Shown: piece by piece, positions 7,351 through 34,698 of the stretch
How the letters are laid out: each line of letters opens with the position of its first letter
Position numbering within the stretch: position 1 is the stretch's first letter
Position numbers and translations under genes: made by a program
Source: Tricharina praecox
Taxonomy: Eukaryota
Assembly (NCBI RefSeq): GCF_024521635.1
Contig: NW_026250407.1
Coordinates: 434,001-498,000, forward strand
DNA: 64,000 nucleotides
Direction: 5' to 3'
The notes under the pieces: model-generated
Seen by the model: only the letters and a program-made list of their open reading frames with translations
The model's database searches: none
What the model was told of the DNA's origin: nothing

Positions 7351-8668
7351 TCACAACTCATCCTTCACATCCTCCTCAGGCTCCACCACAGTCCTCCCCT
7401 TCACTGGTTTCTCATCACAAACGACCACTCCGTGATCCAGCAGACTAACGCCCACATACTTCCCGCCCTCCAGCACTGCACCAGTACTAACCGGGCCATA
7501 AAACCCACCATCATCCACAAATACCGTCTCCCATCTCCACTCTTCCCTCCTTAGGGCTGAATTGGCAACATCATACTTCCTCTTCACGACCTCGACGGCG
7601 TCCTCCCGCATCTTCAGCAGTGGCAGCACCTTGGCCGTCAGTCCTCCGGGCTTCCTCGCCTCCGGGTTCTTACTGCTCTCTAACATTCCCCGCAGCGACG
7701 TGAAACCACTAACAAACAGCTCTCCAGCCGTAAACACGAGATTATCCGCCAGCACCGCGGCCCTGAGAAACATCGCGCCGCCGATCCTAGCCGGATCCGC
7801 CGGATCGTACTCGAATTCGTATATGCCCTTCAACGTGGCGACAGCCCAAACACGGTTCGTAGCAGTATCCACGGCCACACCATTCCCGAGCGCCAAGCGC
7901 GAGATCATATGTGCCTTCTCTATGCTGACCCCTCCCTCGCTATCGCTCGCAAGGGCAACGTGGACCAGACTCCCGCCGGGCGCAGCGGTCAGCAGCTCCG
8001 CCGCCAGCGCAATTACGTGCGCCGCGCCGCGCCGCGCGAACAGCAGGTCGTTGGTGAGATAGAACCCGTCCGGCCCCGTGGCGGCAACGGAGTTGGGCGA
8101 GGCGATGCGCGGGTGCTCCAGTGTTGCCACGTGTGTGGCCGCGCCGGTGGAGAGGGCTAGGTCGAAGACCTCGACCCGCGGCCCAGCACGCGCCTGGTTC
8201 ACGACAAAGAATCGTGTTCCCGAGGTGGTGTTCGTGGCCGAGATGCCGAGCGGGCGGAAGTCCGAGATGCCCAGGTGTGCCCTCGTCGGCGCCGACGCTG
8301 GTGAGGCGGGGTTGTAGATCCAGACCTCGCCCACGGGCAGCCCTGCCGGGATGTTCCCCGTTATGTGGTCCCATTGGAGCCGTGAGGGATCGCAGGCGAG
8401 CAGGAGCAGCGGCGAATTCGGGATCGTGCTGAAGTCTTCACAGTAGGCGAGGAGCGGGCGGTGGTGCACGGCGCAGGTGTGCGGTGTTGCGATTGCCGGG
8501 AGCGGCGGGACGAGGAAGAACGGTGAGCGCAGGGTGAGCGTCTTCCACAGGAGCGCGAGGAAGGAGATGAGCCCTATCCAGCGAAGCTGGGTGTTGGTTA
8601 CGGGGAGGGCACTGAGAATGTTAGTGAGTACCTATGATGGAGGAGAGACATAGTTACGGTGGTGCCAT
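7351..8668 (-). CDS. Paraoxonase/arylesterase-like six-bladed beta-propeller with N-terminal signal anchor and C-terminal KDEL
   Basis: Small first exon ATGGCACCACC, then intron to 8612, giving a hydrophobic N-terminus (WIGLISFLALLW). PON-like motifs CED, LLLLACD, FRPLGI, SPNSV, FYLTND, NGV, ADNL. Ends ...EEDVKDEL*. Confidence 0.8.
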
Positions 8669-9140
8669 GGAGGTGATCGGTTGGGGTTTCTAGATGACAG
8701 TGGGCATGATGTGAGGTTAAGGTTATGGCCTACATAGACGTTGAGGTCTATATAAATAAAGCTGAGATGCGTTGTTGGTGGGCTGATAACGGGAATGACG
8801 GTAGGCACGCATTGATTGGCAGGCGCGCTAATGGATTGCTTTAGACGTGATTCAATAGGCAGGTGATACCGCGATGGATGTCACCCGCACTCACTTCACT
8901 TTTTTTTCTAGAAGGCTGACAAAAGTAGCCATTGATTCCGTCTCATCCTCCACAGCTACAGTCCAAAATTTCACCCAATTCGTCCCTTCTGTAAAAGAAA
9001 CCCGCCAACCCATCTTATCGAAAAAGAAACCGCATGTGCAAACTAGTATAGTACAAAAGAATTCCCGTTGAACACCAAGGATCCGATCGTCACAGCAACT
9101 TCGTTACAAAGAAAGCCTCTGCGCCGCAGCATGGTGATTT

Positions 9141-11549
9141 CTAAAACTTCCCATTCTTCACTCCTTCCACCTTTCCGGTCACCTCGATACCCTCCGCCGA
9201 AAGATCAATCTGCTCGACTCCGATGTCGCCATTCCTCCACTTGCCCTCGAGCATATCGTTTGACTCCTTTGGCTTAACGCCAACAGAGGTTCCGACTGTG
9301 ACGTGGGGGATGTTGTTGGCACATTCCCACTTGTCGCCGACGAGGCTGGCAGTGATGGCCATGACACGTCCGTCCCAGACCACGGACTCGAGTTTGATTG
9401 TGCCGGTACCCATAGGTTCGCCCACCGCCTTCGCGTCGCTGTAGAGCTTAATGTAGCGCTCCCACATTTCCTTGTTCTGTGACTTGTTGGCATTGTGAAG
9501 GAGGGTTACGTGAAACTTTTGCTGTACACGGTGGGCGGACTTGAGCTCGTAGTAATAGGCACGCTTCTCCTCGGGGGCTGTGGCGATCGCCTTCTCGACG
9601 GCTGAGACTATGATGCTGGGAGGGAGGGAAACGCTGAAGTAGTCAACGTCCACCTTCTTCGACGTCTGTTGCTGGGGTTGCGTCTGCGCTCTCTTCGGGG
9701 CTGGCGTGGCGGAGCCCTTGATGGTGTGTTTGATCGCTGGCTTGTACTCATCGAAGGAAGCCTTGATCGCATCGTCCAGCGCTGCGGCGGATGGAATCTC
9801 AGGCACCAGCTTGGGATAGGCATGGTGGAGCGCCTTGACCACAGTCTCGAGGTTCTCCCTGGATTCCTTGAGCGGATCAAGATCGATGACATTGTCAAAG
9901 GAGCGGTCAGGGAATTCGTCGATATCCACCGACTGAAACCGATTCAAAAAGCCCTCCATAATTCCGATAATCTCGCTGTTGTTCTTGGTAGCGGCATGGA
10001 TGGTCTGATGGTTGTCGCCACGGCTGAGTACGCGCTTTCGGGTGATCTCTCGAATCTTGTCTTGGAGGTCCTTGTCGGTGCTGCTGTGGTGGACGTAATT
10101 AAGGGCAACAAAATGCGCCTGGTTGACCCCGGGGCTCATGTCGTCGATTAGCTGCTTGCGTTCGCGCTTTTGATGATTGTTTCGGTCTGCAATCACCGCA
10201 GGGCAAACCACGAGTGCCTTGGTGCAAGCGGCTGCAAAAGCCTGGGGCTTTCCCTTGCGAGCGGTGAGGTTGTCGTTCTGAATGTGAGACCAGCCAAAGA
10301 GTTTGGTCAACGCATGCGCAACAGTCGTCTTTCCGCAACCAATTGTAGCGACCGGAACGAGTACGAGCTTCAGGTTGCTGTCCTGACCTGTTCCCTTCTC
10401 TTCTAAGTCCATCCTGACGATATCGGCGCCCTTGAGACCGCTGTGGGCAAGGTATGCGTTTCGCAATTTGATGATGCCGTGGTTCATCTTGTATTGATCG
10501 GCCGCACCCTTGTTCTGAATGAAGTATGCAGAAGCAAACTTCAAGTACTCTCTGGTGATTTCCTTGTGGTTTCGGTACCTCGGTTCCTTTCCGGCAATCA
10601 GGGCCTTGGTGCATTCTCGCCACTGCCGGTACAGAAGGTAAGGCTCCTCGAACTTGTACTTAAAGAACCAGTCCTCCCAGTTGGGGTCGCTGGCATCAGT
10701 TCTCGCTTTGCATCGAATGACGAAACCCTCCACATCCTTCCCATCCCACGAACCCGTCTCCGCAGCTTCTTCCAGGAACTTCCGGAGCTGCTGAACATCA
10801 TCCTTAACGACATAGTCGATCTTGCGGAACGCCCACTCCTCGGCAAACTTGTGCACCTCCGGCATCGAGTATGTCGCAAAATCTCCGAGGTTGTAGTTGA
10901 TACCGTGAAGGTAGAGACCGGCCTGATCTCCCTCATACGCCAGGATATGCTCCTCAAAAGAATCATCACACAGCTCCGCCACGGCGGTAACATTGGCGTT
11001 GTAGAGCGTCTCCGCCAGATCCCGCCTCGTCTTCCCAATCTGCGCCAACTGCTTATCGACCCATCGCTCGCCAACAATCGCATGCGACGCTTCAGTCTCC
11101 TCCCTCGCACCAGTTGAATGCTTACTGCACACTAACAAGGTCCCATCCGGCAATCCCGAGATGAAAATGATGCACCCATTCTCCTTCACGGTGACTTCAT
11201 ATGGGGCCTTCGTATTGTCCGCAATCCACTCCCATTTGGTGCACTTCACCTCGTTAATGTTGAAGAATTTATCGTAACCGCGGATGGCGATGCGGTAGTT
11301 CCCGGAAACCTTGTCGCGCCATGTGAAGAGTCCGCGTGCGTATGTGGGGAGAGTGTGCTTCTTGAAGTCCTGCTCCTGGAATTTCCACGAGTCTACATTG
11401 TGCACAGTGTCTTCGATCGTGAAAGTGCTCTTTTTGCAGGAGAAGCCGTGCTCTTTGGGCTTTTTGCCGATGCCTGATTCGAGACGTGCGACAAGGGCGT
11501 TGACTGTGGCGGGGTCTTGGGGTTTACTGAGGGCGGGATCGGCCGACAT
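9141..11549 (-). CDS. TRL1: Fungal tRNA ligase (ligase, polynucleotide kinase and cyclic phosphodiesterase domains)
   Basis: 802-aa intronless ORF. Ligase motifs KENGCIIFISG and EGFVIRC; kinase P-loop ATIGCGKTT and DRNNH; CPDase HVT motifs (FHVTLLH, PHVTVGT). Confidence 0.96.
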   Translation of the reverse strand: MSADPALSKPQDPATVNALVARLESGIGKKPKEHGFSCKKSTFTIEDTVHNVDSWKFQEQDFKKHTLPTYARGLFTWRDKVSGNYRIAIRGYDKFFNINEVKCTKWEWIADNTKAPYEVTVKENGCIIFISGLPDGTLLVCSKHSTGAREETEASHAIVGERWVDKQLAQIGKTRRDLAETLYNANVTAVAELCDDSFEEHILAYEGDQAGLYLHGINYNLGDFATYSMPEVHKFAEEWAFRKIDYVVKDDVQQLRKFLEEAAETGSWDGKDVEGFVIRCKARTDASDPNWEDWFFKYKFEEPYLLYRQWRECTKALIAGKEPRYRNHKEITREYLKFASAYFIQNKGAADQYKMNHGIIKLRNAYLAHSGLKGADIVRMDLEEKGTGQDSNLKLVLVPVATIGCGKTTVAHALTKLFGWSHIQNDNLTARKGKPQAFAAACTKALVVCPAVIADRNNHQKRERKQLIDDMSPGVNQAHFVALNYVHHSSTDKDLQDKIREITRKRVLSRGDNHQTIHAATKNNSEIIGIMEGFLNRFQSVDIDEFPDRSFDNVIDLDPLKESRENLETVVKALHHAYPKLVPEIPSAAALDDAIKASFDEYKPAIKHTIKGSATPAPKRAQTQPQQQTSKKVDVDYFSVSLPPSIIVSAVEKAIATAPEEKRAYYYELKSAHRVQQKFHVTLLHNANKSQNKEMWERYIKLYSDAKAVGEPMGTGTIKLESVVWDGRVMAITASLVGDKWECANNIPHVTVGTSVGVKPKESNDMLEGKWRNGDIGVEQIDLSAEGIEVTGKVEGVKNGKF

Positions 11550-12473
11550 TGCGTGCGAGAAGGGTTGCTTGGTGGAAAGATAGCGGCGGTGATGCTGGTG
11601 TAGTGAGGGGTAGATGGTATGATATAAGGAGCGGGAGACAAAGCCGACAGGGGTTTTGGAAGAGGGTTCAAACTCGTAGGGTCTCTAAAGAAGTCCGTGA
11701 TGTTCTTTATTTGCGGGTGGAGGGGAAACAGATGCATACCTGCAAGCCGCTACCGCGCTAATGACGTTGACTCTTCGTAAGGCTGAACCCGAGGTGCATA
11801 CGGTGAGTGCTCCACGCAGGCGATGAGTCAGGGCAAACGATGTGACACATCTAGACATGATTGGGTACACTCAGTACTTCTGGCTGAGTATACTGATAAC
11901 TGCCAAACACTCTGTTCACCTCAAAGTTCTCCGGAAACTGAAACTGGACAGTATTCGGTGCCCCGGCGGGGAACTGGATTTGGCTCTAAAACTGGAACTG
12001 GAAACTGAGGCTATCCAAACGGGCCCTAAAACTTTCGGCGCCGAGAAGGAAGGTGGTGATCGAGGTGGAGCTCTTCTTGCGGTGAAGGATAATGAACAGA
12101 TGCGCGCAAGAAAGAAGGTCTCAAGGGTATTTCCAAGAATTATTCACCAGGAGGGATGTGCAGACGCCAATTGACTTCCGCCTAAGCAGTCACTTTTGTG
12201 TGCAGATCGCCCGGGAAAGTCACGGTCCATATTGCCAGACAAAATCCAGCAATGTTTCCTTCAGTCCATGATCCTCACTTCTCAGCTGAGTATTCAAAAC
12301 AGCTCTAAGATGCAAACTATGGTTACAAGTCACAATTAGGTAGAATGCCAGCAGAAAGACAAAAGCCCATGGTAAAAACAGTTCCTCCAAGTCAGACTAG
12401 GTTGAGCGTCCGGTGGCGTAGTCCTCTCGTATGACTTTCCCACACACCCCTCCCCCTCGATCTGCCCCCATGT

Positions 12474-13265
12474 TTAATGCCTCGGGGCCAACCCAGGTAC
12501 ACCGGCGTACCTCTCCTCTCTCTCGGTCTTAAAGAACAATTGCAGAAAGAACTCCTTCTGATCGGCGTCATAATGCGTCCAAAACTTCCCCGGGCTCCGA
12601 TCCACCTCCTTCGCCTGCAGCTTAAACGAGACAGTCTCGTACGGTTCCGCAGCGACCAGTAGGTACTGATAGTTTTTATCCGGGGGGACCTCGATGCGCT
12701 GTTCAAACGCACTCATGAACCGGTACCTGGGCTTAATCTCCGTACCGATCTCGGGGTACTGCAGCTGAAACAACAGCCCAAGCTGCCTCGTGACCGGATC
12801 TCGAATCTTGGTGATTTTGTACCCCGGCCGTCCGATTTTGATCAAGTTCTTCCGTGGCGCGATCAACTGCTGCCCGATCATCCCCTGCGGTAGACCGGTT
12901 ATCGGATCTAGGTTTTTCCCTTCTTTTGCCTCGCGCGCGGCGCGCCGCGCAAGGTTCGTTTGGTGCTTGCGGCCCTGTGTGTGCGCGAGGTAGGATCCAT
13001 CGTTCTGGTGCACGGTGAGACAGAGACGGCATTCGAAGGAGCCGACGTGGTTGCGGAAGCTGTGGGAAGCAAAGATCGGTCAGTATCAGCTTGTATAGAC
13101 GCGACGCTCGGCAAGAGTCAAGACTCACAAGTATGGATCCTTGTCAAGATCGATAGTCTCGAGCGCGAGCTTGCGCAGACGCTCGCGGCGGTCTTGGTTG
13201 CTGGCGGAGTGCGAGGCGACACCGCCACCACCCATCTTCGAGCCAACACGTCCTTCGTAGGCCAT
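12474..13265 (-). CDS. PRP11: Splicing factor 3a subunit 2 (SF3a66/Prp11/Sap62)
   Basis: MAYEGRVGSKMGGGGVAS...DRRERLRKLALETIDLDKDPYF, one intron, then FRNHVGSFECRLCLTVHQNDGSYLAHTQGRKHQTNL (U1-type Zn finger) and KIGRPGYKITKIRDP. Confidence 0.95.
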
Positions 13266-14100
13266 AGTTTATCGTTTTATTCGTCTTTGAGAGGATGCAA
13301 TGTGGGGTTTTCGGGGCGAGAATCGTGAATGTCCGTCGTGGTGCTGGTGGTGCTGGTGGTGTTGGTGGCCGAGGGTTGGTTCTAAATTCTGGGGGACGTG
13401 TCGCGCTCAAGGTTGAAGATTGGGCTTGGCATACACTAAAATGAGGACACTATGTATCACTAAGCTGCAGGGGATCCTTGACACTTGGCGACCCGGAATC
13501 GAGTGACAGCTCATGTAGTTATTCGTGCCGACAGCTTCTGCAGTCGCTCCGGACGCAACAAAATCCACCCGTTCTCCACCAATATTGGTCCAAACAACAG
13601 GATTAAAGATTTCTAGTAAGGCTGAGAAGTAGGAGAGTCCAGTAGAAAAGAAATATTACTCATGGCTGTGGAACGTAGCGTCGAGGGCGCCGTATGTAGT
13701 GTTGAAGGATTCGGATACAATGTTGCTATATAAGGAAATGGAGCACTTAACCGAAAACAAAATCATCGCCTCACAAGCCACACCAGGTATGATACCTATG
13801 CCAGCCACACCCGGTTCAGACAAGGCCCGAGCGGCTTGTCCTCATCTTTGTTGGATCGTCTACATAATTACTGTCGCACTCACGTGCCTAGAAGCTAACT
13901 GTTTGCCCACAATCACTATTTCTCACAACAAAAACGGAACACACATTACGAAGGCCATCGGGTATGTCCCATCTAATCGTCTACTCGCATACAGACAGCT
14001 TAAACTCTTTTTAAGCCGGGGATCGAAACTGAAAGATCGCAGTTGAGGGATTGAGTTCTCCACTCTCGTGGGTAGAGTATCCTTGGTGGCGGGGCCTCGA

Positions 14101-14757
14101 TTAGTTGACGTTGACGCAACCATGATCGGAAGTAGGGGCGTTACCATCCAGCAGGTTCGGCATCTTGTTCTCATTGTCTCTGTATTCACGAGTGACTGGC
14201 TTGTTTTCGTCTCCACCAGCCACTCCGCCTTCGCGACGCAGCTTTAGAAGGTTCAACTCCTTGTCCAGGCGGTCACGCAGACACTTGATGTCATTGAAGA
14301 CCTGGAAAAAAGCGCCAGCTACAGCTTCACGGGCGTGGTAGCCGGGTATAGCATCGGCAATACTGATCACTCTCACGAGAAGCTCAAAGCTAGTATCGTG
14401 AGGGTTCACAAGCCCGTAGGCCGCGAAGCCAACCAGTGGGTTCTCGTGGAGCTTGGAAACCAGCAGATCACCGAGACGCCAGTCCTCCTTGTTGAAATAA
14501 AAGAAGGCGCCTTTGGTAAAAGTACCTACTTCATGTTAGAAAGACTTAGGAGGTAATAGATAGTGCAAATGACCTTGGAGGAGGTCGAAGTGCACCTCCA
14601 TTCGGTCGGTGCGCCTGCTCGAGTCAGCCAGTGAAATTTCATCCAAATTAAAAGGGCGAAGTTCTTACAGCTGCTCTCCAATATAGAATTGAAGGATGCC
14701 AGTATTGTTGAATCCGACCGGCGGAATCTGCCTGTACTGCTGTCTTGATTCTTCCAT
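14101..14757 (-). CDS. Divergent RNA polymerase II subunit RPB11-like protein (RpoL/Rpb11 family paralogue), about 184 aa
   Basis: Hand-spliced exons 14757-14669, 14614-14574 and 14525-14101 (555 nt, in frame). Introns GTAAGA..GCTGAC..CAG (54 nt) and GTCATT..CTAAC..TAG (48 nt). Product includes AFFYFNKEDWRLGDLLVSKLHENPLVGFAAYGLVNPHDTSFELLVRV...AREAVAGAFFQVFNDIKCLRDRLDKEL, matching the remembered Rpb11 pattern FTFNKEDHTLGNLL...P.V.FAAY...HP....FELRVQT...P.EA. The start codon is uncertain because the frame is open upstream to 15042. Confidence 0.72.
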
Positions 14758-15526
14758 GGGTATAGGTGCAGGTGGTATTGTAGCGGTATTCTGTAGATAT
14801 TTGCAGGCGGCGGTAGAAGGGAGAGCTGTGGTGAAGTGGTAGTAGAAATGACAGGTGGGTTGCAGTGAGTTGTTTTTGGGCGAATAAGGGCGGCCTGACC
14901 CAGCGGTAAAAGCTATACGATTTAAAAATCTCAAACAACTCATCGCAAACACTGGTTGCATCTCTGGCACTCGCTCTACTTCTTTTCGAAGCATCACTAC
15001 CGGTACTGTAGCTTGTATGGTAGATACATATATTCGTTTCATTTTTTTGTGCGACTAAGAGGCCATTCGAAACGCTCTTGTCACCACATCCCACTTAAGC
15101 AACCCTGCAGTACATAATACGTCCATGGCGAGGAGCCCTACCCCGGTCCCGGATTGAAAAACGGTTAGGCGTTCACTCGGCAGGCACCACAACAATCCTC
15201 CCGCTGTTATGTACTTCTAACAGCAGCTGAGCTCTTCCTCCCTCCACTGCACGCACCGTCTTCAACTCTTCATCCACAGAACACAACAGCCTCGTAACTT
15301 CGGAAGTGAATCCCACAGCTTTTCTTAGGCCTCTTCGGTCTTCACCCGAATAAACAGAGACAGCATTAACATCCATATTTCAGCGCTCGACATTTACTAG
15401 AAAGTAAGTCACGTTGATGGACCGGGGGTCGACCGAACTACTTACCGAGCGCATAGAGAATTGACAACGAGTCCCAGATAACCAGATAGTCCGAGCATTT
15501 TCCCAAGACAACTTCAAGATATAACA

Positions 15527-16966
15527 ATGTCTGCCGACAAGATGGAGCTTGACCTCACCGAAATGGAGCTTGACCCAGTCATAGTGGAGTCGGAAGAGCT
15601 TGACGCAGGCAACAAGGGAAGAGCCCAAAAGGATGGGGATGTGCAGAACGATTCCGATACGGAGGACCTTTCAAGTGTCGAGGACAGCGGGGACATCAAG
15701 GACGTGGTCGATATGGAGGATGGCGGTGACTCTAATCGCGCAAATGAGTACGAGCTCTGGGTGTAAGTTGCTCCCCAATCCGTCTAACTTCCATCCTCAT
15801 ACCTCTCAAGCTCGTTTATGATCCCGAAGAAACTAAGTTTCAAATTTTCGATTTTCAGGAATCAGCAGCGCGAGCAGAGCAAGGCTATTCTTGAACAGCT
15901 TATGTCTAACAAAAGCTCCGTACTCCCGACTTCTTCCAAGAAGTCAGGTAGGAACAACCGCATTACGAAGGCTCGTGTGCTAGACCAAGAACCCAGACGC
16001 TCTAAGAGGGTGATGGTGCAGGCTGCATGCCGGGAGAGTTTGGAATCTCACACCGATCCCGCCCCGCTGAATCCCGCTAAGAACTACAGTCCGGAGCCGA
16101 AGACACCCAAGCTCCGTGTTGACGGCAAGCGTTTCGGTGCGATCCCGGGCGTCAGCATCGGCGACGTGTGGGAGTTTCGCATCAAACTAGGCGCGGCCGG
16201 AGTTCATCCTCCTCCTGTCGGCGGAATCTTCGGGGGCCCAGAGTCGGGTGCGTACTCGGTCGTCCTGTCCGCAGGATACCCGGAGGATGTCGATGAGGGC
16301 GACAAGTTCACCTACACCGGTGCGGGTGGCCGGGAACTGAAAAGGAAGAACTTGCGCACGGCCACACAGAGTAAGGACCAAGAACTCGTCCGTGGAAATG
16401 CTGGCCTGCACAAGAGCTTCCAGACGGGAAATCCTGTACGCGTAGTTCGCGGGTACAAGAACCCGTTAGGGCCCGAGACCGGGTATCGCTACGATGGCCT
16501 TTACAAGGTCGTCAATGCGTATACCGCCAAGAGCCAGGATGGAAAATTCCTGGTTTGGCAGTTCGATTTCGAGAAGATCCCCGGCCAAAAAACCGTGAAC
16601 TACCATGCAAAGGAAATCAAATCCAAGGTAAATAATCTAGAGAATGTCGACGAGAATAAGGCCGCGATGCTGACTGGACGGAAGAACGAGACAGCAGATA
16701 CCAATGCTGAAGCCGGGCCATCTCCGCCTGCCACCGATGGGGAGGACGACATTTCTGGAGCCCTGACCTCGTCGCCTGCCACCGATTCGGAGGACGATAA
16801 CACTGGAGCCCCGACCTCGCCGCCTATCACCGATATGGAGGACAACAATAATGGAGCCGCGCTGTCACCGGCTACCACCGACACGGAGAACGACAATGCT
16901 GGAGCCCTTACCTCGCCGCCTGCCACCTATGGGGAGGACAACAAGGCTGACAAGGACGACTGTTGA
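15527..16966 (+). CDS. Stand-alone SRA/YDG domain protein (UHRF1/VIM-type 5mC reader) with acidic N-terminus and repeat tail
   Basis: Exon 15527-15762, intron 15763-15858, exon 15859-16966. SRA motifs FGAIPGVSIG, GVHPPPVGGIFG, GAYSVVLSAGYPEDVDEGDKFTYTGAGG, PVRVVRG and GYRYDGLY. No RING, PHD or SET domain seen. Confidence 0.9.
16711..16950 (+). repeat. Coding tandem repeat, about 5 x 48 nt (16 aa) in the SRA protein tail
   Basis: AGPSPPATDGEDDISG / ALTSSPATDSEDDNTG / APTSPPITDMEDNNNG / AALSPATTDTENDNAG / ALTSPPATYGEDNKAD. Confidence 0.85.
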
Positions 16967-17782
16967 AGGACATACAAATTGACGAGGAAACCTTACCGGT
17001 GTTTGAGCAGAGGACCGCCATGGCCTAAAACCTTGGGTCAGTTTGGTCGATTAAGGTTTGGAGTTGGAATAGTGCGTCTTTCGGTCAGTTTCTGAGATGA
17101 ATGGAGTTCGGTTGCTTTTCACGTTTTCTTTTTCTTCTTCTTCTTTTCTTCTTCTTCTTTATCTTCGTGAATGGTCAATTATCTAAGAAAGTACATACTT
17201 CCTAAGTACATTAGGTAGGTACATCAGTATGTAAGTAATTGTAGATGTGTTGATGGGTTATGCTGCGCTGCGTTGTAAATTTGGAAAGGCTGGATAATAC
17301 CATTTGCTTCAAGAATTATTTTCTCTTTCTCTCTTTCTCTTTCCTCTTTTATGTACCTATATACAAATAGATAATAATCCGCTTTCCCTTCTAAAGCTTA
17401 TAGAGCACTCACAACTGAATTCATCGGCAGTTTCTTAATAGCAATACCCACTTTGGTCAATCCCGGGTCAGCGTCTGATAGGTATTGCTTGCGGAGTGGT
17501 GATGGATCATGGATCCATGGAGTCCACGGTCCACCCTCTGCCCCCTGAGCTCAACAACCACATCAGTGATCACTATCTTAGCCCTCGAGGACGAACGACA
17601 TGGGCAACTAAGCGGGACAGCATGCATGCAACATGGCCTTACCTACTTACTTGCCTATTGGTTTACCGATTCAATGCACTGCACAGGGTTGGTTGGTTGG
17701 TTGGTTGGACATTGCCTTTGAGGTTACGGTTTACATAGGTACTGAATGTTTGTCACCAACTGGCAACGTCCACTCTGGCATT

Positions 17783-17874
17783 GTGGTTCAGTGATTCGGT
17801 GATTCGGCGATTCAGTGATTCGGTGGTTTAGTGATTTAGTGGTTCGGTGGTTCAGTGATTCAGTGATTCAGTGG
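17783..17874. repeat. Degenerate 8-bp tandem repeat (GTGATTCR)n, about 11 copies
   Basis: gtggttca gtgattcg gtgattcg gcgattca gtgattcg gtggttta gtgattta gtggttcg gtggttca gtgattca gtgattca. Confidence 0.85.
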
Positions 17875-18528
17875 GGTACCGTACTACTGTACGTAGTGGC
17901 CGGTTTTTCCGAAGGGATCAAGAATCGGTGGAGATTCGAGAGTGCTGTCACTCGCGGCCGCGATTGGGGCACGGTACTATAGTTATGGCCGGAAAGACTC
18001 ATGGTTGGTTCGCCTGGTTCCTGCACTTCCGAGAGGTTTTTATTTCGAGAGGCAGGCGACTAAGAGCTTTGTAACAATAATGGTATTCCTCAATGTGAGT
18101 GCTGTACAATACATACAATCCTCCGTGTTTAAGAAAGTGCGATAAGTACAAACAACAAGGGTCCTTTCGGCTTCTGTGACGAGATGATATCGCATGAGCA
18201 TACTACATAATTCGGTAGAACCGCGCCAAAATAATCAAAAACAAACAAGCGCAATCCATGAATCCCATCATGGATTGAATTTAGAAAAGTTAGATCGTCT
18301 TGAGCCACTTTTGAATGGACGCTTGTGGTTGTGGTTGTGGCTGTGGTCGCGGCCGTGGTTTCGGTGAACGTATGTACTCTAGACACGCGACGCGATGAGG
18401 CGCTTGTAAGCGGCGCCAGCTTGCATTGTTCCCTCGGCCAGCACCACCGGCACCACCACCATCTACAACACCTCCACCTCCACCGAACCACACGCGACCG
18501 ACAACACCACGCGCGCGCGCCACCCACA

Positions 18529-19456
18529 ATGTCGACGCCCTCCTCCCCACTTTCGCCATACTCCTCGCCCTCCCCCCCGCCGCCCAAGCGCCGGGCCTCC
18601 ACCGCCTTCAGCTCTCCGCACTCGTCTGACCACGAGCACCCGGACCTGCTATCCTCCGACGTCTCATCGGACACCAGCGGCTCGGTTCCGGGCTCGCCGG
18701 GCCCTGCGGACACGCACGATGACGACGGCCCCGCGGAGCAGGTCTCGGTGTGCCGCTGGGACGGGTGCCTCGCGGACATGGGGAACATGGACGATCTCGT
18801 CAAGCACATACACGAGGAGCACATCGGCACGCGCAAGGCGACGTATGCGTGCATGTGGGACGATTGCATGCGCAAGGGGATTACACATGCGAGTGGCTAT
18901 GCGCTCCGCGCGCACATGAGGAGCCATACCAAGGAGAAGCCGTTTTATTGCTCGCTGCCGGGTAGGTTGCTCCGATACAACGCTGGATGGGGGGAGGAAC
19001 GACGGGCGCTAATGCGACGCCGCGCTGCTAGAGTGCGATAGGAGTTTTACCCGCTCAGATGCCCTGGCGAAACATATGCGCACTGTGCACGAGACGGAGG
19101 CCCTGCGCCCCTCCGATCCGGTACCGAAGAGTCATCCGCTACACCCGCACAATGCGCCGAGAAAGGCAAGAGCTGGAGGAGGCGCGAGGACTGATCGCTC
19201 AGCACCCGCATTTTACGGGGCTGAAGACGGCTACGACAGCGATGAGGAAAAGCTCCCGCCGAAGGAGCTGCTGAGGTTGCTGAAGCAGAAGCAGACATGG
19301 GCCGAGAGGGAACAGCAGGACCTCACGGATGCTCTGGCGAAGTTGGAGGGGAAGAGGAAGGAGGCGTGGGTTAAGAAGGAGATGCTGCTCAACAGAGTGC
19401 TGGATATGGAGTTGGGCGAGGAGGAGGCCCGGAAGGTTAGCTTGGATTGGGTGTAG
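18529..19456 (+). CDS. C2H2 zinc-finger protein similar to S. pombe INO80 subunit Iec1
   Basis: CRWDGC..MDDLVKHIHEEHIG, YACMWDDC..HASGYALRAHMRSHTKEKPFYCSLP, intron 18962-19031, then ECDRSFTRSDALAKHMRTVHETEALRPSDPVPK and a C-terminal coiled coil. Confidence 0.85.
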
Positions 19457-20766
19457 CAGATGCTGGGACATCGATCAAGGTCATGGGAGTACGGAGTTTG
19501 CTTTTGCGGTCTGTTATGTTGCTTTGATATACTGGTATGCGCGGTTGCGATTGTGGATGAATTTGAAAAGCAATATTCTGCCTGGCTAATTGGTGTTTTA
19601 CTGATGTACGCAAAATGTGATTTCGGACGAGCCATTGGGGGATGTCGTATACGCTCTGGGCTGCTTCCGTCTCGTAACTTCAAGCTCGGATATGATCCGA
19701 CACCACCAGCTCTAGATCCTGCTTGCCTTTAACTATAATCTCGCCGATGCTACTCCTCCTGCACTCTTCGGGCCTCGGTCGGAAAGAGCGTAGGTCCGAT
19801 GATTGCGGGCCCAGGGCCAGCCCCATATTTCGCTCAAGCGAGACACTTTCCAGCACTCATCCAGTGGCCAGTCACGTTGTAGGCATCATAGGTTCCTGTT
19901 CAGACATCACTGTCAATTCCAATTCCTATTATCTTGTGAAGCAGAATCTCTCGCGCGAGAACAGAACAAAATCATCACAGCATCCACGCAATACGGCACC
20001 GGTATATAGATACTTCCTCTCCACTTTGAATGGTGATCCCGTAGATACGCACTTCGGCACCGTTTGCCTTACGTCATCACGGAAGCAACCCGCAAAAAGG
20101 CGGCTCTCCCGTGTCCCCTCCGTCGATCCCGGCGGAACGTCCGTCCTGTACCACCACCCATGAGCACAACCACCAATTCCGCGATGCCTGGGCTCGGGGC
20201 GCATACAATCCACCCTTGCCAATTGGTGGAACTGCTCACGTTCCGATGAGCCGGCCTTCCTTTCCTTGCAGGTGTGGGGTAGGGTTGCGGTGCTTACCGT
20301 ACTCTACTCTAGCGTCGATGATGCCAAATGTTTGCCTCGACGTCGATCCTTCACGACCTTCACGACGACGAAGATGGCTTTCTTCCCCACAGATGCACTC
20401 CGGCATGTCTGGTGCCGAATGAACCGTATAGGCTCCGCCGAGGGTCCCCACATCCCGCTTGCGACCCGCTTTTTCCACAAGCTAGAATCGCGATGTCTGT
20501 AGCTGCATGGAAGGGTTTGATCTTGTCGAAAACAGCTGCAGAATCACGATTGGCACGCGGCACGCCCCGAGCAGACGCAGTGTACAACCATTATCTGAAC
20601 CCTGGGAACCGTTGCTGAGGCCCCTTCCCTCCCTATACCCCGCCTGACACGTCCGTCTGGTGCCGCTCCCGAGGTAGCTAGCGGTGCGCGGTGGTTCCAA
20701 TTCCATAAAGACCCTCTACATCTACATCTCGTAGTCCAGCAGCCAGACAGCACAATCATCACCACC

Positions 20767-24895: not shown

Positions 24896-25425
24896 TGGAT
24901 GTATACGTTCTGTTTGTTCTTTGATATTTCTCTCTACTCACTCTACTGTACCGTATGACGATTCAATACTTTCTTCGTGCGATAACCGATCACTCACTCG
25001 ACGAATGAGTGACATAATGTGTTTGTCTGATACAACGTACGTACGCCTACCTATCAGATATCAGGATCTTGGGAGTATTTTGTTGGAGGATAGAGAACCT
25101 GATCTCGGGGAAAGTGTATCTACATAGATTTGATATCGTCCATGGCCTGTGTTATCGACTTTCGGCTGGATCTAGTGGTCTGTATGTACTGTAAAATGAA
25201 ATCGATCAAATATGGAACAGGTGGGCTTCCGCTGTAGTCACTCGTCGTTCGCCAAAATGCGACCTCCTTCGTGTCCACCAACATATGGAAAAAATGATGA
25301 ACAAAGTCTCACTCCTTCAACGGCCAAAACGAATGATATTGCCAACAGACGCCCCATGAACATTAACCCACTCCTGAAAAGAACCCCCACCAAAATAAGA
25401 GTATAAAACGCCGGCCAAGAATATC

Positions 25426-28124
25426 TCACACAAATTCTGCGTCAGGCATGTTGAACAGGCCCTGCACACTCATCCAATCTATCTCCTTCTTCTGAAGCGA
25501 AAAGAGATGGTGCTTGCCAGTACCCCGCTTCTGTGACGTTGTCGGATCGAGACAAACCAACTTCTCTTTTGCGTCCACTGAGCTCACCTGGTGACCGACG
25601 CACGAGTACTTGGTTCCACGTCTCACATCCAAACAGACGAGTGCGTAGCCTTGCGGAGTCATTACCTGTGCCATAATCAATCCGCTCAGCAACATGGTCC
25701 ACATGGTGAGCGGAACGTCGATCGAGAAGCCGTCGTCGGAACGTCTCGTAAAGGCGAAGTTGTAGGGCCCACGCGTGTGGAGGATCGTCGTGCGCTCCTC
25801 GTGCAAAAGTTTGGCGATTATGAGTTGCTCGGGAATGCCGGTGACGTCGTGGAGTTCGCTGATGCTTTTGCATTGCACCGTGAAGTTCAGAAAGTCTCGC
25901 CACGACCAGGTCTCAACTCTGACGCTTTTGCAGATCAGTACAAGAAAGGCGGCGAGAACCCAGGCGTACTGTTGGATATATTTCATCAGCTTCGAGTTAA
26001 ACAAGGATTACTTGGGGGGAAGGCATACAGTCGTAATATTGAAAGGATCGACTGCCACGATTCTGTTGCGAACTGTGAAGCCTATGGCCAGACCACCAAC
26101 CACAAGAATGGCAGCCGAAGTGATAACGGTCCATACGTAGAATCGACAATTCACTATTACGGCTTTTTGATCGAAAATCCATTCATTCATCCTTTCGTTC
26201 GCATCTCTGATGCTGAGGGCATTGACACGCGCAGATGCATTTCGAGAGGACACGGTAGTGTCCATGAATCGAGTGGAACCGGAAATAGCTGCGATCTTCG
26301 GCCCAGAAAGGAGCTTGTCCCTGGTCATCAAACCTTTGGACAATGTTGAAACATAACCGCCTTTTTCGCCCCCCGCATTCTCAAAGTCGCTGGTGTATAT
26401 ACGGAAAAATGCCTTGAATTTCGTCGTCTCATAAGGTCGAATCGTTTCGTCCGGATTCTCGACATTGGTGAGAGCAATCAGCCTGATTATGTCAATGGTT
26501 GCTGAAACAATCATTGGAGATGTTATGAGAAGTGCGACTGTGACAGTGATGATATTTCTCATGCTTTCCAGAGGCAAGTGTTGTTCCGGAGTGTGTCCCT
26601 GGTCCAAAGGGTTGTGAGGAGCTCCATCTTCATGGCCTACCATGTCGCTACTATAACTCCAGGTAACCTTAGTCTGTAGCGTGGAAGTGGTAGTACCTGC
26701 GATTGAAGGCGGGTTGCGAGTATATTCTCTCCGGAGGGATTGCACGGTTCTGTCCAGAATAGCAAAACCCGAGTGAGCGATATTCAGGCAGGGCGGGTCC
26801 GAAGTGGCTAGAAGCTCTCCCTCGCGGTCCCTGAAAAGCAGTGTTTGGAAGCCCTCGAGCCCAGTCTCGCTATGGAAATCAGTAAGGATTGTATGTACAA
26901 TGGCTGGATGAATGGCCAAGTATATGCTTACTAAACAATGGAGCAGATCTCGTATTTGGTGAGACAACCAATCCTCTGTTCCGTCAAACTGGCAAGCAGA
27001 TACTGCACCAGGTCTTCGAGTTGCCTATATTTCTTTTTCTTGGCAATATAAAACTCTTTGAGGCCTTGATCCATGGTTTCAATATCTCGTTTCTCCCCAG
27101 GACCGCCTCCGACCACTTCCGGAAGTTTCCGCTTCGAATTGTCGGACTCGGTCTTCTCTTCGGTTCTGTCCAAAGACACGGTAGAAAAAGCGGCCGGTTT
27201 TTCGGAGATGATCTTTATCGCTGTTGACCAGGTAGCCAGGATTGCAAGACAATTTTGTGCCCACTCATCACTGTAAGCGGCTTGAATGAAAAAGCGAGCG
27301 AAGACCGCCGTGGTGTAGTCCACCAGACAGAATATGGCAGTGCGGCTTTCCTCGTCCGTCATTTCGTCGTCCATGGAACCGGTCTCGAATCTACAGAGAA
27401 ACCTCCGGTCCCGCTCGTATGCCTGGCTGACGTGGAGATCTTTGCAATGCTTCAGAAGGAGGAACTCATTGTCGTGGCGTCTGATCCTATCACAATCCAA
27501 AATGCGGTCGGCCAGATTTGCAAGGCAACGGTATGCACGCGGCGAGCCCGAGTCATCCTTGAACAGAGTATCATCGGAGAACTGCAATTCTTCCTCTCTA
27601 TTGTTGGCGTACCTCACCAAGCGACGTACTTCCCTCTCCCACAGCTCGCGTGACTGGTCGTCGGTGACGCCATAGTGCTCCAGATGATCAAAGGCTGGCA
27701 AATCCTTCGGGGCGATATCCCTTCTGATATTAGAGGGCACCTTAAAATCTTTATGCTCTAAGACACACTTCATGACGTCTTCCTCTTTGATGTTAGGCTT
27801 CTGGGCCCGTGGGACTTGCTCGTTGTTCAGCATGCCAACAGCCGATGCATGGCTTGCGGGTTCGACGGGCTTCTTCTTCTGACTTCCGACAAAGTTTATG
27901 AACTTCGCTTTGACCGCATCCAGCCGTCCCAAAGACGTAAGAGGCGGTATTGTAGGGGGAATTGGAAGAGCGTTTACTCCCAATGGTGTGGGTAGCTGCC
28001 GCCGCCGTGGTACCTTCGACCGCGGCGAGTGATGCGAGCTCGCGAAAGTGACCGCGGGAATCGAGCTTAAAATCGGGACCGGGACCAGACCTCCAGGAGC
28101 CGCCAGAGTGGGTGTCGAAGCCAT
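25426..28124 (-). CDS. Uncharacterised fungal membrane protein (about 860 aa, C-terminal transmembrane helices)
   Basis: Three track ORFs join through introns 26931-26870 (GTAAGC..ACTGAT..TAG) and about 26028-25970 (GTATGC..CAG). TM-like segments YVWTVITSAAILVVGGLAIGF and YAWVLAAFLVLI; conserved-looking WSWRDFL, CKSISEL and TRGPYN. Start codon uncertain. Confidence 0.7.
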
Positions 28125-29389
28125 GGGGATTATCGCAAGGTTTCTGAGAGGTATTGTTTGCAGAGAGGTTGCTGGTTCCTCGATCGAGTTAACAGGGAAG
28201 TGTTTCAAACAAACGGGAAAATAGATCAGTGGGACAATATCCTAGAAGTCGGAGCTTGAGCTGGTATTTGGGTAGACCTAATACCGTAATGACAGACGTA
28301 TGACACCGTTCTATGGGTATATAACACATCTGGTTCGTAGCTTTGCGGAGTTACTCTTTCTTTTCTTTTTCCCCGTCATCAATTGCGTGCGACCATCCCC
28401 CGGCCTGCCGCTGCGGAATCATTAAGGCAGTGGGTTGCACCGCCCGGCCTTCCTCTTTCGCTTCCTCCTCCGTACCTGATTTCCACTGGAGTCTGGCTGC
28501 CTCCTCCTCCTCTTCCACCACCACTGCGGCGGGTCGGCTGCTAACACACGTTGTCACCAGGAAGTCTAGCACTGCCTAACTACACCGCTCATCCGCAAGC
28601 AGTTCCAAGACTTTTGTGCGGCCCTTCGCTGACGCATTCTATGTGCCGAGGACAGAGCCTCGGGGCGGGCTGGCCTTCTTTCTTCCTGGGCGGTTCTAAC
28701 TTCTCTTTACGTGGAGTCCAAAAATCCTTTGATCGTCTTCCACCTGGGGTAGTTCTTGAAAAGGTGCTCCATCCCCGCCCGACATCGAGGCGCACACCCC
28801 TTTTCTCCTTCGCTTCATCATGGATTGTATGCGACCTGGCCGTATCATGGTGGACACGTCGATTTACGTTGGTATTGCGGGCAACCAAGCATTGTGCGCA
28901 CTTTTGTGCGAATAATTTCTATAATTGAGGTGTGTCTGCGTCAGACCCAATGAGAAACACACTTCCTTCCCTCGCAAGGCTCTAGAAGCACATCGCATTG
29001 CCAACCAATACCACATTGACAACAGACCCCCACAATCCTCAGCTGCATCCGATAATGTGCCGTCTCAGACGGACAAGCGCCGCTGGGCGGTCTATCGCCG
29101 ATAAGGTCTATCCCGTTCACGAAGGTGCTCAGCTGAAAATCCTCACATCTGTGAGGACGATACGCTATTGACGTGACGAGGCGCAGGCTGCAGCATCTTC
29201 GAAGTCTCGAATATCCCCACCTCCAGTTCGTAGGTAAAGGCGTGCGTGCGTGATAAGGTTTAATATCTGGTTGATCCCCAGAGCACTCGTCTAGTTTAAA
29301 CTACCAGTGACCACGACTACCGTCCTGCTGCCATATCCAACACCCCGCACCAAACACGAAGCGAATTTCACAGCAACACAGGTGACAGA

Positions 29390-31727
29390 ATGACGACTAT
29401 GGCTGAATACCGCTCGGTATTGCAACGAGAACCTCCTACAAAACCTGCTGCGGCCCCTGGAGACGGCTCGGACGACTCCAGCAGCTCCGACGAGGAAGTG
29501 CCAACAACCAAGATTGCACACGAAGACCTGACCGAAATCATAAACTGGTGCGGATCGGAAGTATTGAGAACCAGTCAATTCGTGTCGTCCCAGAACAAAT
29601 CGAAGAAGAATGGGCCGCCGGCCAAGAAGTTCGGCGAATACGCCATTGTAACTCGGCGGACGCTGGATGATGATCGACGCACGGTGCTTTCGGTGGTCAT
29701 GGAGATACAGTCCAAGCGGCTGCAGAAAGAACTGCAGAAGATGGTCGAGTTCCCTGGAGCAGTGGACCTGAAGGCGAATCCGATCTTGATCCCAAAGCCG
29801 TACCAACTGCTGTTCTACGAGCGAGACAAGATCCGGAGGTTCAAGCACGAATCGACAGAACTCGGAAATGAGATGCAGCTACTTGCGGATTTCATCCGCA
29901 CGGACGACGGCATAAGATCCATACGAAAAGAACACAAGTACCTAATTTCCCGTCGTAAAATATCCTGGCGAATCGTGTGGACTATTTTCCAGCCGGGACA
30001 GCTGGTCGTCTTCAACATCGATGGAGTTGTCACGATCCGTCGTCTTGTGAAGTTCAAACTTGCTCAGTTAAATTTCATGGCTGTTGGTCTTGGGATAGGC
30101 TACAACGGCACACGTCTGGGAGAGACAAAGGATCGAAGAATTCTCCGCCCGTTCAACGGTATCCGGGATATCGAGTCACTTCCTGTTGTTCCCCTCAAGT
30201 ACTGGAAAGATGGAGAGAAGCTTAAAGAAAGACTGATCGAGAGAGGCAAGAAGTGGGTGCGGTTGGTGAAAAGTCCTCGGCACATGGCATTCAACGGACT
30301 GTGTGAAAATCCCTTCGGGAACGATTTTCTGGTTAGTGGGGCACTATGGAATGATTCCCTACGTACCTGCTAATCCGTTCCCATCTCCTTCAGCTGAACG
30401 AACGAATCATCTTGGACAATGATGCGTTTTTGGACGAATACGTATTGTACCGTCCGAAACTTCTTCCAGAACCCACCAACGAAGCCGATCAGGCCAATGG
30501 AGCGTCATGCATCCCAAAAGATGCCGATCTCTCAGATGACGAGGATGATGGTCAAATTTCTGTCGCCGGTTCCGAACCGGTTCATGTATCAGCTGCGGAT
30601 GCTGCTGGTGCGGACCCTTTGTCAGAGGAAATCGATTCCACCGCCAAAAACCTCGAGTCCGAGCCCGAAGAAGACAAAGAACTCACGGATGACGAGTACT
30701 GGCGGTGTCCTGCCCGGATCCCTGGGTTCCCTCTCCGGTCAAAGAAATGGGGCTTCTTTCTAATCGAGGAGCCCATGCTCACCGAGATACAATGGAAGGA
30801 TGGTGCGTTCGACATGCTTCAGATGGTGAAATTCAAGAAAGATCTCGTCAAGTCTCTTATCGATGGGCATAAGAATGAAGTACGGACCTTTGACGACATA
30901 GTGGAGGGCAAGGGCAGAGGACTTGTATTCCTGCTGCATGGCCCTCCTGGACTGGGCAAGACTCTGATGGCTGGTATAATATATTCTCCTCTTCATAACT
31001 CCAGTGGGTTCGCAGGCACTGAGCTGATCGGCAATCACAGAGAGTATATCAGAACACACAAGACGGCCTCTGTATTCAATCTCGAGCGGAGAGCTCTCGA
31101 CAGAGATACAGGGGATGGAGAAGCAGATCACTCGCATCTTCAAAATGGGCAATAAATGGAAAGCACTGGTATTACTGGATGAGGCCGATGTCCTGTGCGT
31201 GCACCCACCACATAAGTACCTATCAGTCAGGCGCATTGAAAACTGACTAGCTGTATAGGATGTCACGGCGAACCCCCGGCAATCTCGAGCAGAATGCGAT
31301 CGTCTCCGTGTTCCTACGGCTGATGGAATATTACGAAGGAATCCTCTTCCTGACCACCAACCGGCACGAAGATTTCGACGACGCCATCTACAACCGCATC
31401 CACATCACGCTGGCATTCGAAAAGATCTCCCACGACGTGCGGCAGGTCATATGGCGGAATATCCTCGAATCCAACGCCGCTATCATCGACATCGACAAGA
31501 AGTGCTGGACACCCGAAGTCTTCGCCGTACTGGGAAAGTTCGAGATCAACGGCCGCTCCATCAAGAACCTCCTTAGGACGGCCGCATGCTTCGCCCAGTC
31601 GGAGGGACGACCGTTGGCCGTCAGACATCTGTATGCGGTCATGAGGGTGAATCTGTTGGTAGAGGAGAAGTTTAGGGCGGCAATGGAGGGGCTGACCGAA
31701 TTGATACCGCCACAACCTGAGTCATAG
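29390..31727 (+). CDS. Fungal AAA+ ATPase (single AAA module with long N-terminal domain, DUF7025-like architecture)
   Basis: Walker A GPPGLGKT, Walker B VLLDEADV, FLRLMEYYEGILFLTTNR, lid NGRSIKN, GKGRGLVFLLHG. Introns about 30332-30393, 30974-31040 and 31196-31258. Confidence 0.9.
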
Positions 31728-32632
31728 GGGCGAACGTTTGGTGAGTGGTTTTATCTATCTGCCTACCTAATATACCTACCTGGGTGAAGATGGAGCGTTT
31801 GCATTGAGTATCATACGGAATCTATAGGCCTTTGCAGCCAAGTCTGCTCGCGGATGATGTTGTTCAAAAATCAAGTATGGTGACAATATACAGGGTAAGT
31901 CGTGACCGCCTCCATTCCACCGTAAATGCCAAGGCAGTTGCTTTCCACACAGAATCTCTACAGAATCTCACCATATCTCACTCATCTCGCTGTATCGGGC
32001 TAGTGTATAGCCTTATTGGGACTAACTATGGTCCCATACAACTGCTCTGGAGGCGGTTACAACTTAAGGCTTCCTCCTTGCACAAAGTACACACATACAT
32101 GCGGTAGTTAACCTGTCGCCGGCGCTGAGCGCGGAAGTGCGCGGGTATTTGGGCTTTTGAAGGGAGGAGTGAGGTACTATATCGAGTACAGTACACAACT
32201 CCACCTTTCGTTTAGATAGGCTGCATGTGAAATAAATTGAAGATCTCTCTCTCTCCCCACCTTTCGCTGGTATCCGTTCCAGACACAGATCGGCACGGTC
32301 GTGCGCTGCCGCTTCTCTTTCTCCCCACTCCACACGGTTTTTTCCATATCATCCAGGACCCAATGGCCAATAGGTACTCTACTATATATGTGGGGATGTT
32401 CTATCCTCTGTGCACGTCCCCACCAACAAACCCGCCTCCTACCCATCATGTATGCAGGGTAACAAAAGGAGTTTAGCAAGTATCTAGTGTACAAGAACAA
32501 AAAGGAGGTTCAGATTCCATGAACGTCAACGACCTTTTAGTAAACTTCGGCAGCTGGGTTTTTGCAAAATTTTCTTTATGTGCCACTGGTACAATCACAT
32601 TTCCAACTTCGACGCATCATAACTCCCGCCGT

Positions 32633-32684
32633 CGCCAGTTCAGTTCGCCAGTTCAGTTCGCCAGTTCAGTTCGCCAGTTCAGTT
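32633..32684. repeat. 13-bp tandem repeat (CGCCAGTTCAGTT) x about 4
   Basis: cgccagttcagttcgccagttcagttcgccagttcagttcgccagttcagtt. Confidence 0.85.
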
Positions 32685-32871
32685 AAGTTTAGGTATGCGA
32701 GTAGTAGTCACGAGCAGCATTGCTATTCGACATCGCCGCCGAGAGAGATCACGCCCACGCCCTTGCCCTTGCATCGTTCCCGCGTTTCGGTTCCCCTGAA
32801 CTGAACGAGAACGAACGATAACGAACGAACCCTCGAAAACTTGTCGCGACCGACCGACCGAAGCGAAAAAC

Positions 32872-34598: not shown

Positions 34599-34698
34599 TC
34601 AGTATTTATTCTAATTACATCATCACTCGTTTCACATGTGACATGTCTGTTCCCAACTCCTTCCGTCTCCGCCGTAGAAATCATCTTTGTCCACAAGT

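Follow-up and report, generated by a model that had tools for sequence, protein, structure and literature searches.

Do two genes that diverge from one short interval in the cup fungus Tricharina praecox work together, or are they neighbours by descent? The question is raised by a stretch of 64,000 nucleotides from contig NW_026250407.1 (assembly GCF_024521635.1, positions 434,001 to 498,000 of the forward strand; hereafter the window, with positions counted from its first letter). Within about 14.0–17.3 kb of the window lie two divergent genes, both spliced and transcribed: a relative of the gene for RPB11, a subunit of RNA polymerase II (Pol II), which we call RPB11L, and a gene for a protein with an SRA domain. 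An earlier note, made from the letters of this stretch, had described a diverged RPB11-family gene head-to-head with a stand-alone UHRF1-type SRA reader, and both identities hold in comparisons with Pfam, PDB and Foldseek. The start codons are where that note had put them, at 14757 on the minus strand for RPB11L (given there as approximate) and at 15527 on the plus strand for the SRA/YDG gene, and the interval between them, estimated at about 770 bp, measures 769 bp. The note had also speculated that the two are co-regulated parts of a silencing system. Our own answer, which we hold to be probable, is that they are two separate genes, a UHRF1-like SRA reader and a duplicate belonging to an RPB11 subfamily, which share an inherited divergent position and are not a demonstrated functional unit.

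We asked where else the pair occurs by using an alignment of 14 SRA proteins to scan contigs from metagenomes. Eighty loci were kept, and all of them were searched by tblastn with the RPB11L protein, three proteins of its subfamily and three canonical RPB11s. RPB11-family matches were found only in L001, L002, L004 and L005, which are four of the five loci whose SRA gene is 46–67% identical to that of the window; the fifth, L003, has no more than 2.8 kb of sequence ahead of its SRA match. The other 75 loci, mostly short and probably from other organisms, gave no RPB11-family match. All four positive loci show the pair head-to-head, RPB11L being upstream of the SRA gene and on the other strand. 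The SRA matches of L002, L003 and L004 are alike, and the subfamily protein P0123 matches L002 at 99.6% and L004 at 99.2%. These three loci appear to be one species, so the pairing is seen in three lineages besides the window, all on metagenome contigs, and the microsynteny that the earlier note had proposed to look for is present.

The surroundings of the pair are conserved as well. L002 is collinear with the window from the tRNA ligase gene to the RSE1-like gene, over at least 10 genes, and because the whole neighbourhood is kept, linkage of the pair is what common descent gives. L005 is rearranged: the block corresponding to window 7354–13079 is inverted, with one end immediately 3' of RPB11L, and beyond the SRA gene the window's zinc-finger, P450 and reductase genes are missing.

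The interval between the two genes varies more than their order. It is nearly the same size in the window (about 0.77 kb) and L001 (about 0.76 kb) but measures about 2.8 kb in L002 and L004, where it contains a fragment of an RNase H-like open reading frame (ORF) typical of retroelements (L002:7195–7428, also present in L004). Within a conserved non-coding block of the window (15176–15260) lies a core with 20 of its 21 positions invariant in the window, L001 and L002 (Table 1). The SRA RNA contig begins at 15273, 53 nt past the start of this core and 33 nt past its end, and the core is a probable core-promoter element of the SRA gene. In L002 and L004 the conserved block stays on the SRA side of the enlarged interval.

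Evidence for transcription came from X1 and X2, two public runs from two studies, which contained about 0.6 of the sequence words sampled from 13900–17100 and whose contigs were placed on 12000–20000. Neither run is on record as RNA; we took both as spliced RNA because GT..AG introns are missing from their contigs in each of the four genes of that region. Contig depth was 3.7–4.8 for RPB11L, 57–100 for the SRA gene, 162–243 for the downstream zinc-finger gene and 227–340 for the neighbouring PRP11 gene, a measure that ranks genes poorly, so that the low depth of RPB11L is a weak hint only. Stretches lacking RNA cover (13602–13868, 14937–15203 and 17340–18140) were not read as silent. Between the RPB11L and SRA transcripts of the window the RNA-free gap is at most about 340 bp.

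RNA contigs cover RPB11L from 13870 to a point within the bin 14670–14936. Two introns, 14668–14615 (54 nt) and 14573–14526 (48 nt), had been predicted from the sequence and were both confirmed by a spliced X2 contig; the first is additionally backed by a 15-nt loose end in an X1 contig. A third intron was skipped by contigs of both runs (Table 1). Because this intron removes the stop codon at 14101–14103, the coding sequence extends to 14011 and has four exons, not three, with the frame open throughout. The gene edge of 14101 in the earlier note is thus the end of an unspliced ORF and needs correcting to 14011 in the light of the RNA contigs. We also considered whether RPB11L might be a retroposed copy and rejected this because of its three introns.

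The exon structure showed some minor variation. An additional T follows 14029, in the last coding exon, in one X1 contig (depth 2.7 of 7.5); it may reflect variation between strains or an error in the contig and, if real, would shift the last few RPB11L codons. Intron positions differ by lineage: L001 has an intron after the start of the alpha-motif helix, where the window and L002 are continuous, and L005 carries an in-frame insert of 15 codons, intron-like, inside the alpha-motif. This variation suggests intron gain or loss in RPB11L across lineages.

Several comparisons place RPB11L in the RPB11 family. Exon 3 matches the Pfam family RNA_pol_L_2 (PF13656) with E 8.7e-5 and 22.6 bits, under the gathering cut-off of 27. 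The best sequence match in the PDB is human RPB11-a (E 3.1e-6, 30.5 bits), compared with 23.7 bits for archaeal Rpo11 and 13.8 and 13.5 bits for two RPAC2 entries. By these scores RPB11L is nearer to RPB11 than to AC19/RPAC2 or archaeal Rpo11. An identity as AC19 was rejected, the RPAC2 matches reaching only E 0.46 and 0.54.

The predicted structure agrees with this placement. An AlphaFold2 model, built from a 15-row alignment that included canonical RPB11s, reached a mean predicted local distance difference test score (pLDDT) of 84.5, with 80 of 126 residues at 90 or above. Its elements (strand 5–11, helix 12–27, strands 31–37 and 45–52, and a long C-terminal helix 64–99) follow the order of the RPB11 fold. 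Foldseek searches of the PDB with the model returned chain K (RPB11) of Pol II for all of the top 14 matches (E 8e-6 to 7e-5, template modelling score (TM) 0.58–0.66). As modelled, then, RPB11L has the RPB11 fold. Its alpha-motif reads EDWRLGD in place of the canonical fungal EDHTLGN, with three of the seven residues changed, and in this the window copy stands alone: EDHTLGN is kept in L001, L002, L005 and the protein P0133, and P0122 has EDHTLAN.

An exhaustive search of 1.84 billion representative proteins recovered 12 at E≤1e-3, one of which was the window's own fragment. Three of the other 11 (P0122, P0123 and P0125) carry an insertion of 4–8 residues in the loop before the last helix and long low-complexity C-terminal tails; the remaining ones are canonical fungal-type RPB11s with EDHTLGN. 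A profile search added P0133–P0137 (seven proteins found, without canonical RPB11). The only subfamily member with an organism name is 'RBP11-like subunits of RNA polymerase, partial [Wilcoxina mikolae CBS 423.85]', from a species that we take to belong to the Pyronemataceae. A word-indexed protein search with RPB11L exon 3 returned the window's own fragment only, and an ESM Atlas query with P0122 returned only generic RPB11 clusters, with scores of 0.88.

A maximum-likelihood tree was computed from a 90-column core of 17 rows, all of which were kept. It separated nine subfamily rows from eight canonical rows with a split support of 94/94, and its end branches measured 1.07 changes per site for the window, 0.16 for L002 and 0.31 for L001. 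Profile scores are graded in the same direction. Against PF13656, canonical proteins reached 93.7 and 88.3 bits, the subfamily relatives 63.6, 55.2 and 38.5 bits (all above the cut-off) and the window copy the 22.6 bits given above; against human RPB11, canonical P0124 scored 76.6 bits, Wilcoxina P0133 46.9 bits and the window copy 30.5 bits. RPB11L belongs to a small, lineage-restricted RPB11 subfamily marked by the loop insertion and the long tails. This fast-evolving group seems to be undescribed: in the openly accessible literature, supplements excluded, we found no fungal RPB11 paralogue, and the word 'fungi' occurs 0 times in the accessible text of a 2026 review of alpha-like subunits (PMC13374769).

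Turning to the other member of the pair, the SRA transcript spans at least 15273–17314. Its coding introns are 15763–15858, which was predicted and then confirmed by RNA, and 16625–16681 (57 nt, in frame); a further intron lies in the 5' untranslated region (UTR) at 15404–15477. The spliced product of 428 amino acids is identical to P0002, annotated as 'PUA-like domain-containing protein [Tricharina praecox]'. The intron 16625–16681 is spliced out in both RNA runs and in the NCBI model, and the models of P0003, P0004 and P0005 read through it as protein; the matching stretch in these three is either a retained intron in the gene calls or an alternatively coding segment. One of them, P0005, represents a second, shorter SRA paralogue of T. 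praecox (203 amino acids, 78% identical over 45% of the query), encoded on a 10.7-kb contig, in which the N-terminal part of the SRA domain is truncated. TTC-rich microsatellites at 17124–17166 and 17320–17349, in the 3'UTR or downstream of the SRA gene, were skipped as repeats when RNA contigs were placed.

The SRA protein consists of an acidic N-terminus, a basic linker, the SRA/YDG domain and an acidic repeat tail. The domain matches Pfam SAD_SRA (PF02182) with E 2.9e-47 and 160.6 bits (cut-off 30.7) over the whole profile (1–148 of 148), and no other Pfam domain (UBL, tandem Tudor, PHD, RING, pre-SET or SET) was found in 15818–16963 or in exon 1. Among solved structures, the SRA domains of UHRF1 and UHRF2 come closest to it (E 1.4e-35 to 9.2e-34), scoring above a bacterial SRA endonuclease and plant SUVH5/6/9/4 (E 8.5e-27 to 2e-15). 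In the HMMER alignment to the UHRF1 structure 3dwh_A, RYDG is aligned and the T. praecox protein has N-L-R where UHRF1 has N-K-R; the roles of the YDG and NKR-finger residues we take from the UHRF1 literature. The domain is under clear purifying selection, with a ratio of nonsynonymous to synonymous substitutions per site (dN/dS) of 0.11–0.18 by the NG86 method.

A protein search gave 123 significant relatives, the best 120 of which were listed. Among those listed, SRA-only proteins occur in Pezizomycetes (Sphaerosporella, Pyronema and Geopyxis), many Basidiomycota, chytrids and Dothideomycetes, and a YDG protein of Cryptococcus floricola, P0044, matches with E 2.5e-31 and 46% identity. Judged by sequence, the SRA gene is a transcribed member of the fungal SRA-only, Cryptococcus Uhf1-like kind.

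Before the evidence is drawn together, some points that weigh against our answer have to be set beside it. Every locus was found through its SRA gene, so that the comparison asks only whether SRA orthologues adjoin RPB11L. In L005 the pair is intact and head-to-head despite rearrangement breakpoints on both sides, an outcome expected by chance in about 87% of cases by our estimate (two breakpoints, about 15 intergenic intervals). No canonical RPB11 of T. praecox was found, in protein searches that were not aimed at one species. Finally, several pairs have a dS close to saturation, which makes the dN/dS values rough (NG86: 0.17–0.57 for RPB11L, with 0.42–0.57 for the pairs that include the window, and 0.014–0.015 for PRP11 at the same loci).

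As no canonical RPB11 turned up for T. praecox, the term paralogue rests on rate, motif loss, a stop codon in L001 and the subfamily tree, and by these signs RPB11L is very probably a paralogue of the Pol II subunit gene. Its dN is 0.30–0.64, compared with 0.009–0.035 for PRP11 next door, a difference of about 10- to 50-fold, and for this reason RPB11L is probably non-essential and no longer under core-subunit constraint. The L001 stop is an in-frame TGA (L001:1002–1004, minus strand) where L002 has a cysteine codon, and could reflect a pseudogene, a population variant or an assembly error. It would be very unlikely, in our judgement, for RPB11L to be instead the sole orthologous RPB11, a lineage-specific essential subunit with an insertion and a tail. 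Such a status would agree with the failure to demonstrate a second RPB11, either in the protein searches or in the window (where tblastn of 12 RPB11-family proteins found no second copy), with the EDHTLGN motif and above-cut-off Pfam scores of the relatives, and with the annotation of the Wilcoxina member as an RNA polymerase subunit. However, a rate 10–50 times that of PRP11 at the same loci, the altered alpha-motif of T. praecox, the L001 stop and a core identity of only 34–50% between the window and the related lineages (canonical fungal RPB11s, of probably wider spread, share 63–68%) are unexpected of an essential core subunit; the very low RNA contig depth points weakly the same way. A different objection is that the T. 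praecox gene is a decaying, transcribed relic without function, even if the subfamily functions in relatives. The longest subfamily branch (1.07, against 0.16–0.31 in the nearest lineages), the Pfam score under the cut-off, the three changed alpha-motif residues, the dN/dS of the window pairs, the stop codon in a sister lineage and, weakly, the low RNA depth would all fit decay. We nevertheless regard it as unlikely, since RPB11L is not an obvious pseudogene in T. praecox: its four exons join into an uninterrupted frame of 193 codons, each of the three introns is spliced, and its dN/dS stays below 1. The AlphaFold core is also confident, though the model leaned on an alignment with canonical RPB11s.

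Whether paralogue or not, RPB11L might still act with its neighbour. In a functional module a bidirectional promoter would govern the SRA reader and the RPB11 variant jointly, and the two would cooperate: the reader might, for instance, bring an Rpb11-like adaptor or a variant Pol II to methylated repeats, in loose parallel to plant SUVH2/SUVH9 and Pol V. The head-to-head order in the window and four further loci, its persistence in L005 between rearranged flanks and the short RNA-free gap between the transcripts are all consistent with such a unit, which we nonetheless consider highly improbable. The whole neighbourhood is syntenic, not just the pair; in L002 and L004 an interval with a transposon fragment splits the promoter and the conserved block remains with the SRA gene; the two genes are under very different constraint; and in L001 a prematurely stopped RPB11L stands beside an intact SRA gene. 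SRA-only proteins span Basidiomycota, chytrids and other fungi, whereas our searches found RPB11L in only a handful of sequences, so the SRA protein does not depend on RPB11L. Nor does the plant precedent call for a special subunit 11, which Pol II, IV and V have in common: the earlier note had said that plant Pol IV and Pol V share the ordinary subunit, and the molecule name of 7eu0_K agrees. A predicted complex of part of the SRA protein (255 amino acids) with RPB11L exon 3 (126 amino acids) scored 0.00 against a mark of 0.34 and weighs neither way. In its boldest form, joint action would mean that RPB11L has been kept beside a hemimethyl-CpG reader since the Tricharina–Wilcoxina ancestor because the two act together, the SRA protein marking methylated repeats, the Rpb11-like protein building a variant Pol II or Rpb3-binding adaptor there, and an arms race with transposons driving the fast evolution. 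This is the most improbable of the proposals considered here; if true, reader-guided transcription at silent DNA would have a counterpart in fungi. The pairing of the genes has by itself no demonstrated meaning, and nothing that we observed argues for a joint function.

If the two genes are indeed separate neighbours by descent, each can be given a tentative role of its own. The SRA protein would most likely flip out 5-methylcytosine, with a preference for hemimethylated CpG, and would help a maintenance methyltransferase to hold methylation on repeats, as Cryptococcus neoformans Uhrf1 does for Dnmt5. RPB11L would be a duplicate of a Pol II subunit gene released from core-subunit constraint, with the T. 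praecox copy the furthest evolved and its alpha-motif residues lost. If active, it would presumably work through its alpha-like dimerisation surface, pairing with Rpb3 or competing for it.

The closest known system for the SRA protein is Uhrf1/Uhf1 of C. neoformans (CNAG_00677). According to the accessible part of the report on it, this protein lacks Tudor and RING domains, selectively binds hemimethylated DNA and promotes 5-methylcytosine in parallel to H3K9 methylation by Clr4 (10.1101/149385). Both proteins have a UHRF1-type SRA as their sole recognisable domain and lack Tudor, PHD and RING, as far as that text describes the Cryptococcus protein (10.1101/149385); our link to its family was made through C. 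floricola P0044. The T. praecox protein differs in coming from an ascomycete (a Pezizomycete) and in having an acidic N-terminus and a tail of acidic 16-residue tandem repeats. With animal UHRF1 and UHRF2 it aligns over the whole SRA domain (E 1.4e-35 and 6.6e-34, respectively), including the YDG motif and the NKR-finger residues Asn and Arg. Unlike animal UHRF1, however, it has no UBL, tandem Tudor, PHD or RING domain, so that the animal route, recruitment of DNMT1 through ubiquitination of H3, is closed to it. The likeness to plant SUVH2/SUVH9 and Pol V lies in the presence of an SRA-domain protein and in the notion that a polymerase acts at methylated DNA; the T. praecox protein lacks pre-SET and SET, and no polymerase large-subunit paralogue was found among 27 scanned ORFs of the window. 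Plant Pol IV and Pol V differ from Pol II in their large subunits.

RPB11L resembles RPB11 (POLR2J) in fold and is nearest to it in sequence, but scores below the Pfam cut-off, has EDWRLGD, a loop insertion and an extended tail, evolves fast and is probably not a core subunit. Extra RPB11 genes are described in humans (POLR2J2/POLR2J3, also hRPB11b/c; PMC6981380) and extra AC40 genes in plants (PMC13374769). In the accessible text of these sources they are, like RPB11L, lineage-restricted extra alpha-like subunits, differing chiefly outside the dimerisation core (PMC6981380, PMC13374769). The fungal subfamily is set apart from these primate and plant examples by its internal loop insertion and long low-complexity tails.

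Should RPB11L be a true paralogue, a small group of cup fungi would possess an extra alpha-like polymerase subunit of a sort that the literature we found, in its accessible parts, describes only in primates and plants, and would offer a natural experiment on the extent to which the Pol II dimerisation scaffold can drift and on whether alpha-like subunits acquire tasks outside the enzyme. With the SRA gene, the SRA-only UHRF1 homologues gain a transcribed and well-conserved representative from the ascomycetes. Because Pezizomycetes heavily methylate transposons, as stated in the accessible text of PMC4165359, a testable maintenance-methylation adaptor in this group would be useful. A 2026 review, in the part available, lists as an open question whether such adaptors operate in fungi beyond C. 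neoformans (PMC13297926).

Table 1. Features of the RPB11L–SRA locus and its flanking genes in the window.
Feature	Position	Strand	Evidence
RPB11-like gene (RPB11L), coding sequence of 193 amino acids in four exons: 14757-14669, 14614-14574, 14525-14145, 14081-14011	14011..14757	-	Sequence, X1/X2 splice joints, Pfam PF13656, PDB, fold
Third intron of RPB11L, 63 nt, GT..AG, contains stop 14101-14103	14082..14144	-	Skipped by one X1 contig (depth 4.8) and one X2 contig (depth 3.9)
Divergent intergenic region of 769 bp that separates the start codons; bin 14937-15203 lacks RNA cover	14758..15526	.	Sequence, RNA contigs
Conserved non-coding core with CAGCTG (probable SRA core-promoter element)	15220..15240	+	blastn blocks, alignment
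SRA gene transcript; 5'UTR intron 15404-15477; coding exons 15527-15762, 15859-16624, 16682-16966 (428 amino acids)	15273..17314	+	RNA contigs
SRA/YDG domain, UHRF1 type; YDG motif and N-x-R finger	16130..16588	+	Pfam PF02182, UHRF1 alignment
48-nt tandem repeat, 4.6 copies, encoding the acidic 16-residue repeats of the SRA C-terminal tail	16724..16944	+	Repeat analysis, translation
PRP11/SF3A2 neighbour gene; intron 13060-13128	12273..13398	-	Pfam SF3A2 E 1.4e-40, RNA contigs
C2H2 zinc-finger neighbour gene; intron 18961-19030	18442..19535	+	Pfam Zap1_zf1 / zf-C2H2_15, RNA contigs

The pair is flanked on one side by PRP11, which the earlier note had recognised and which its strong SF3A2 match supports (Table 1), and on the other by a gene in which C2H2 zinc fingers are all that Pfam recognised. 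More distant genes of the window code for eIF3m, NPR3, a tRNA ligase, a P450, an aldo-keto reductase and an adenylate kinase, as well as an RSE1/DDB1/CPSF1-type protein, eIF3h, Tim54 and a kinase-like protein. None of the 27 large window ORFs scanned encodes a DNA methyltransferase or a polymerase subunit, large subunits included, and an Rfam scan of 13000–18500 gave no match at E≤0.1.

Two other parts of the window deserve mention. Between the aldo-keto reductase and adenylate kinase genes, about 12 kb (24900–37100) have no counterpart in the otherwise collinear L002 and may be a lineage-specific insertion; they hold several long ORFs lacking a Pfam match and one DUF7025 ORF (29300–30370). 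Further along, at 38679–42930, lies the large RSE1/DDB1/CPSF1-type gene for a double beta-propeller protein, with the splicing factor Rse1, Cft1 and DDB1 as candidates for its identity; DDB1 is a DNA-methylation cofactor in Neurospora.

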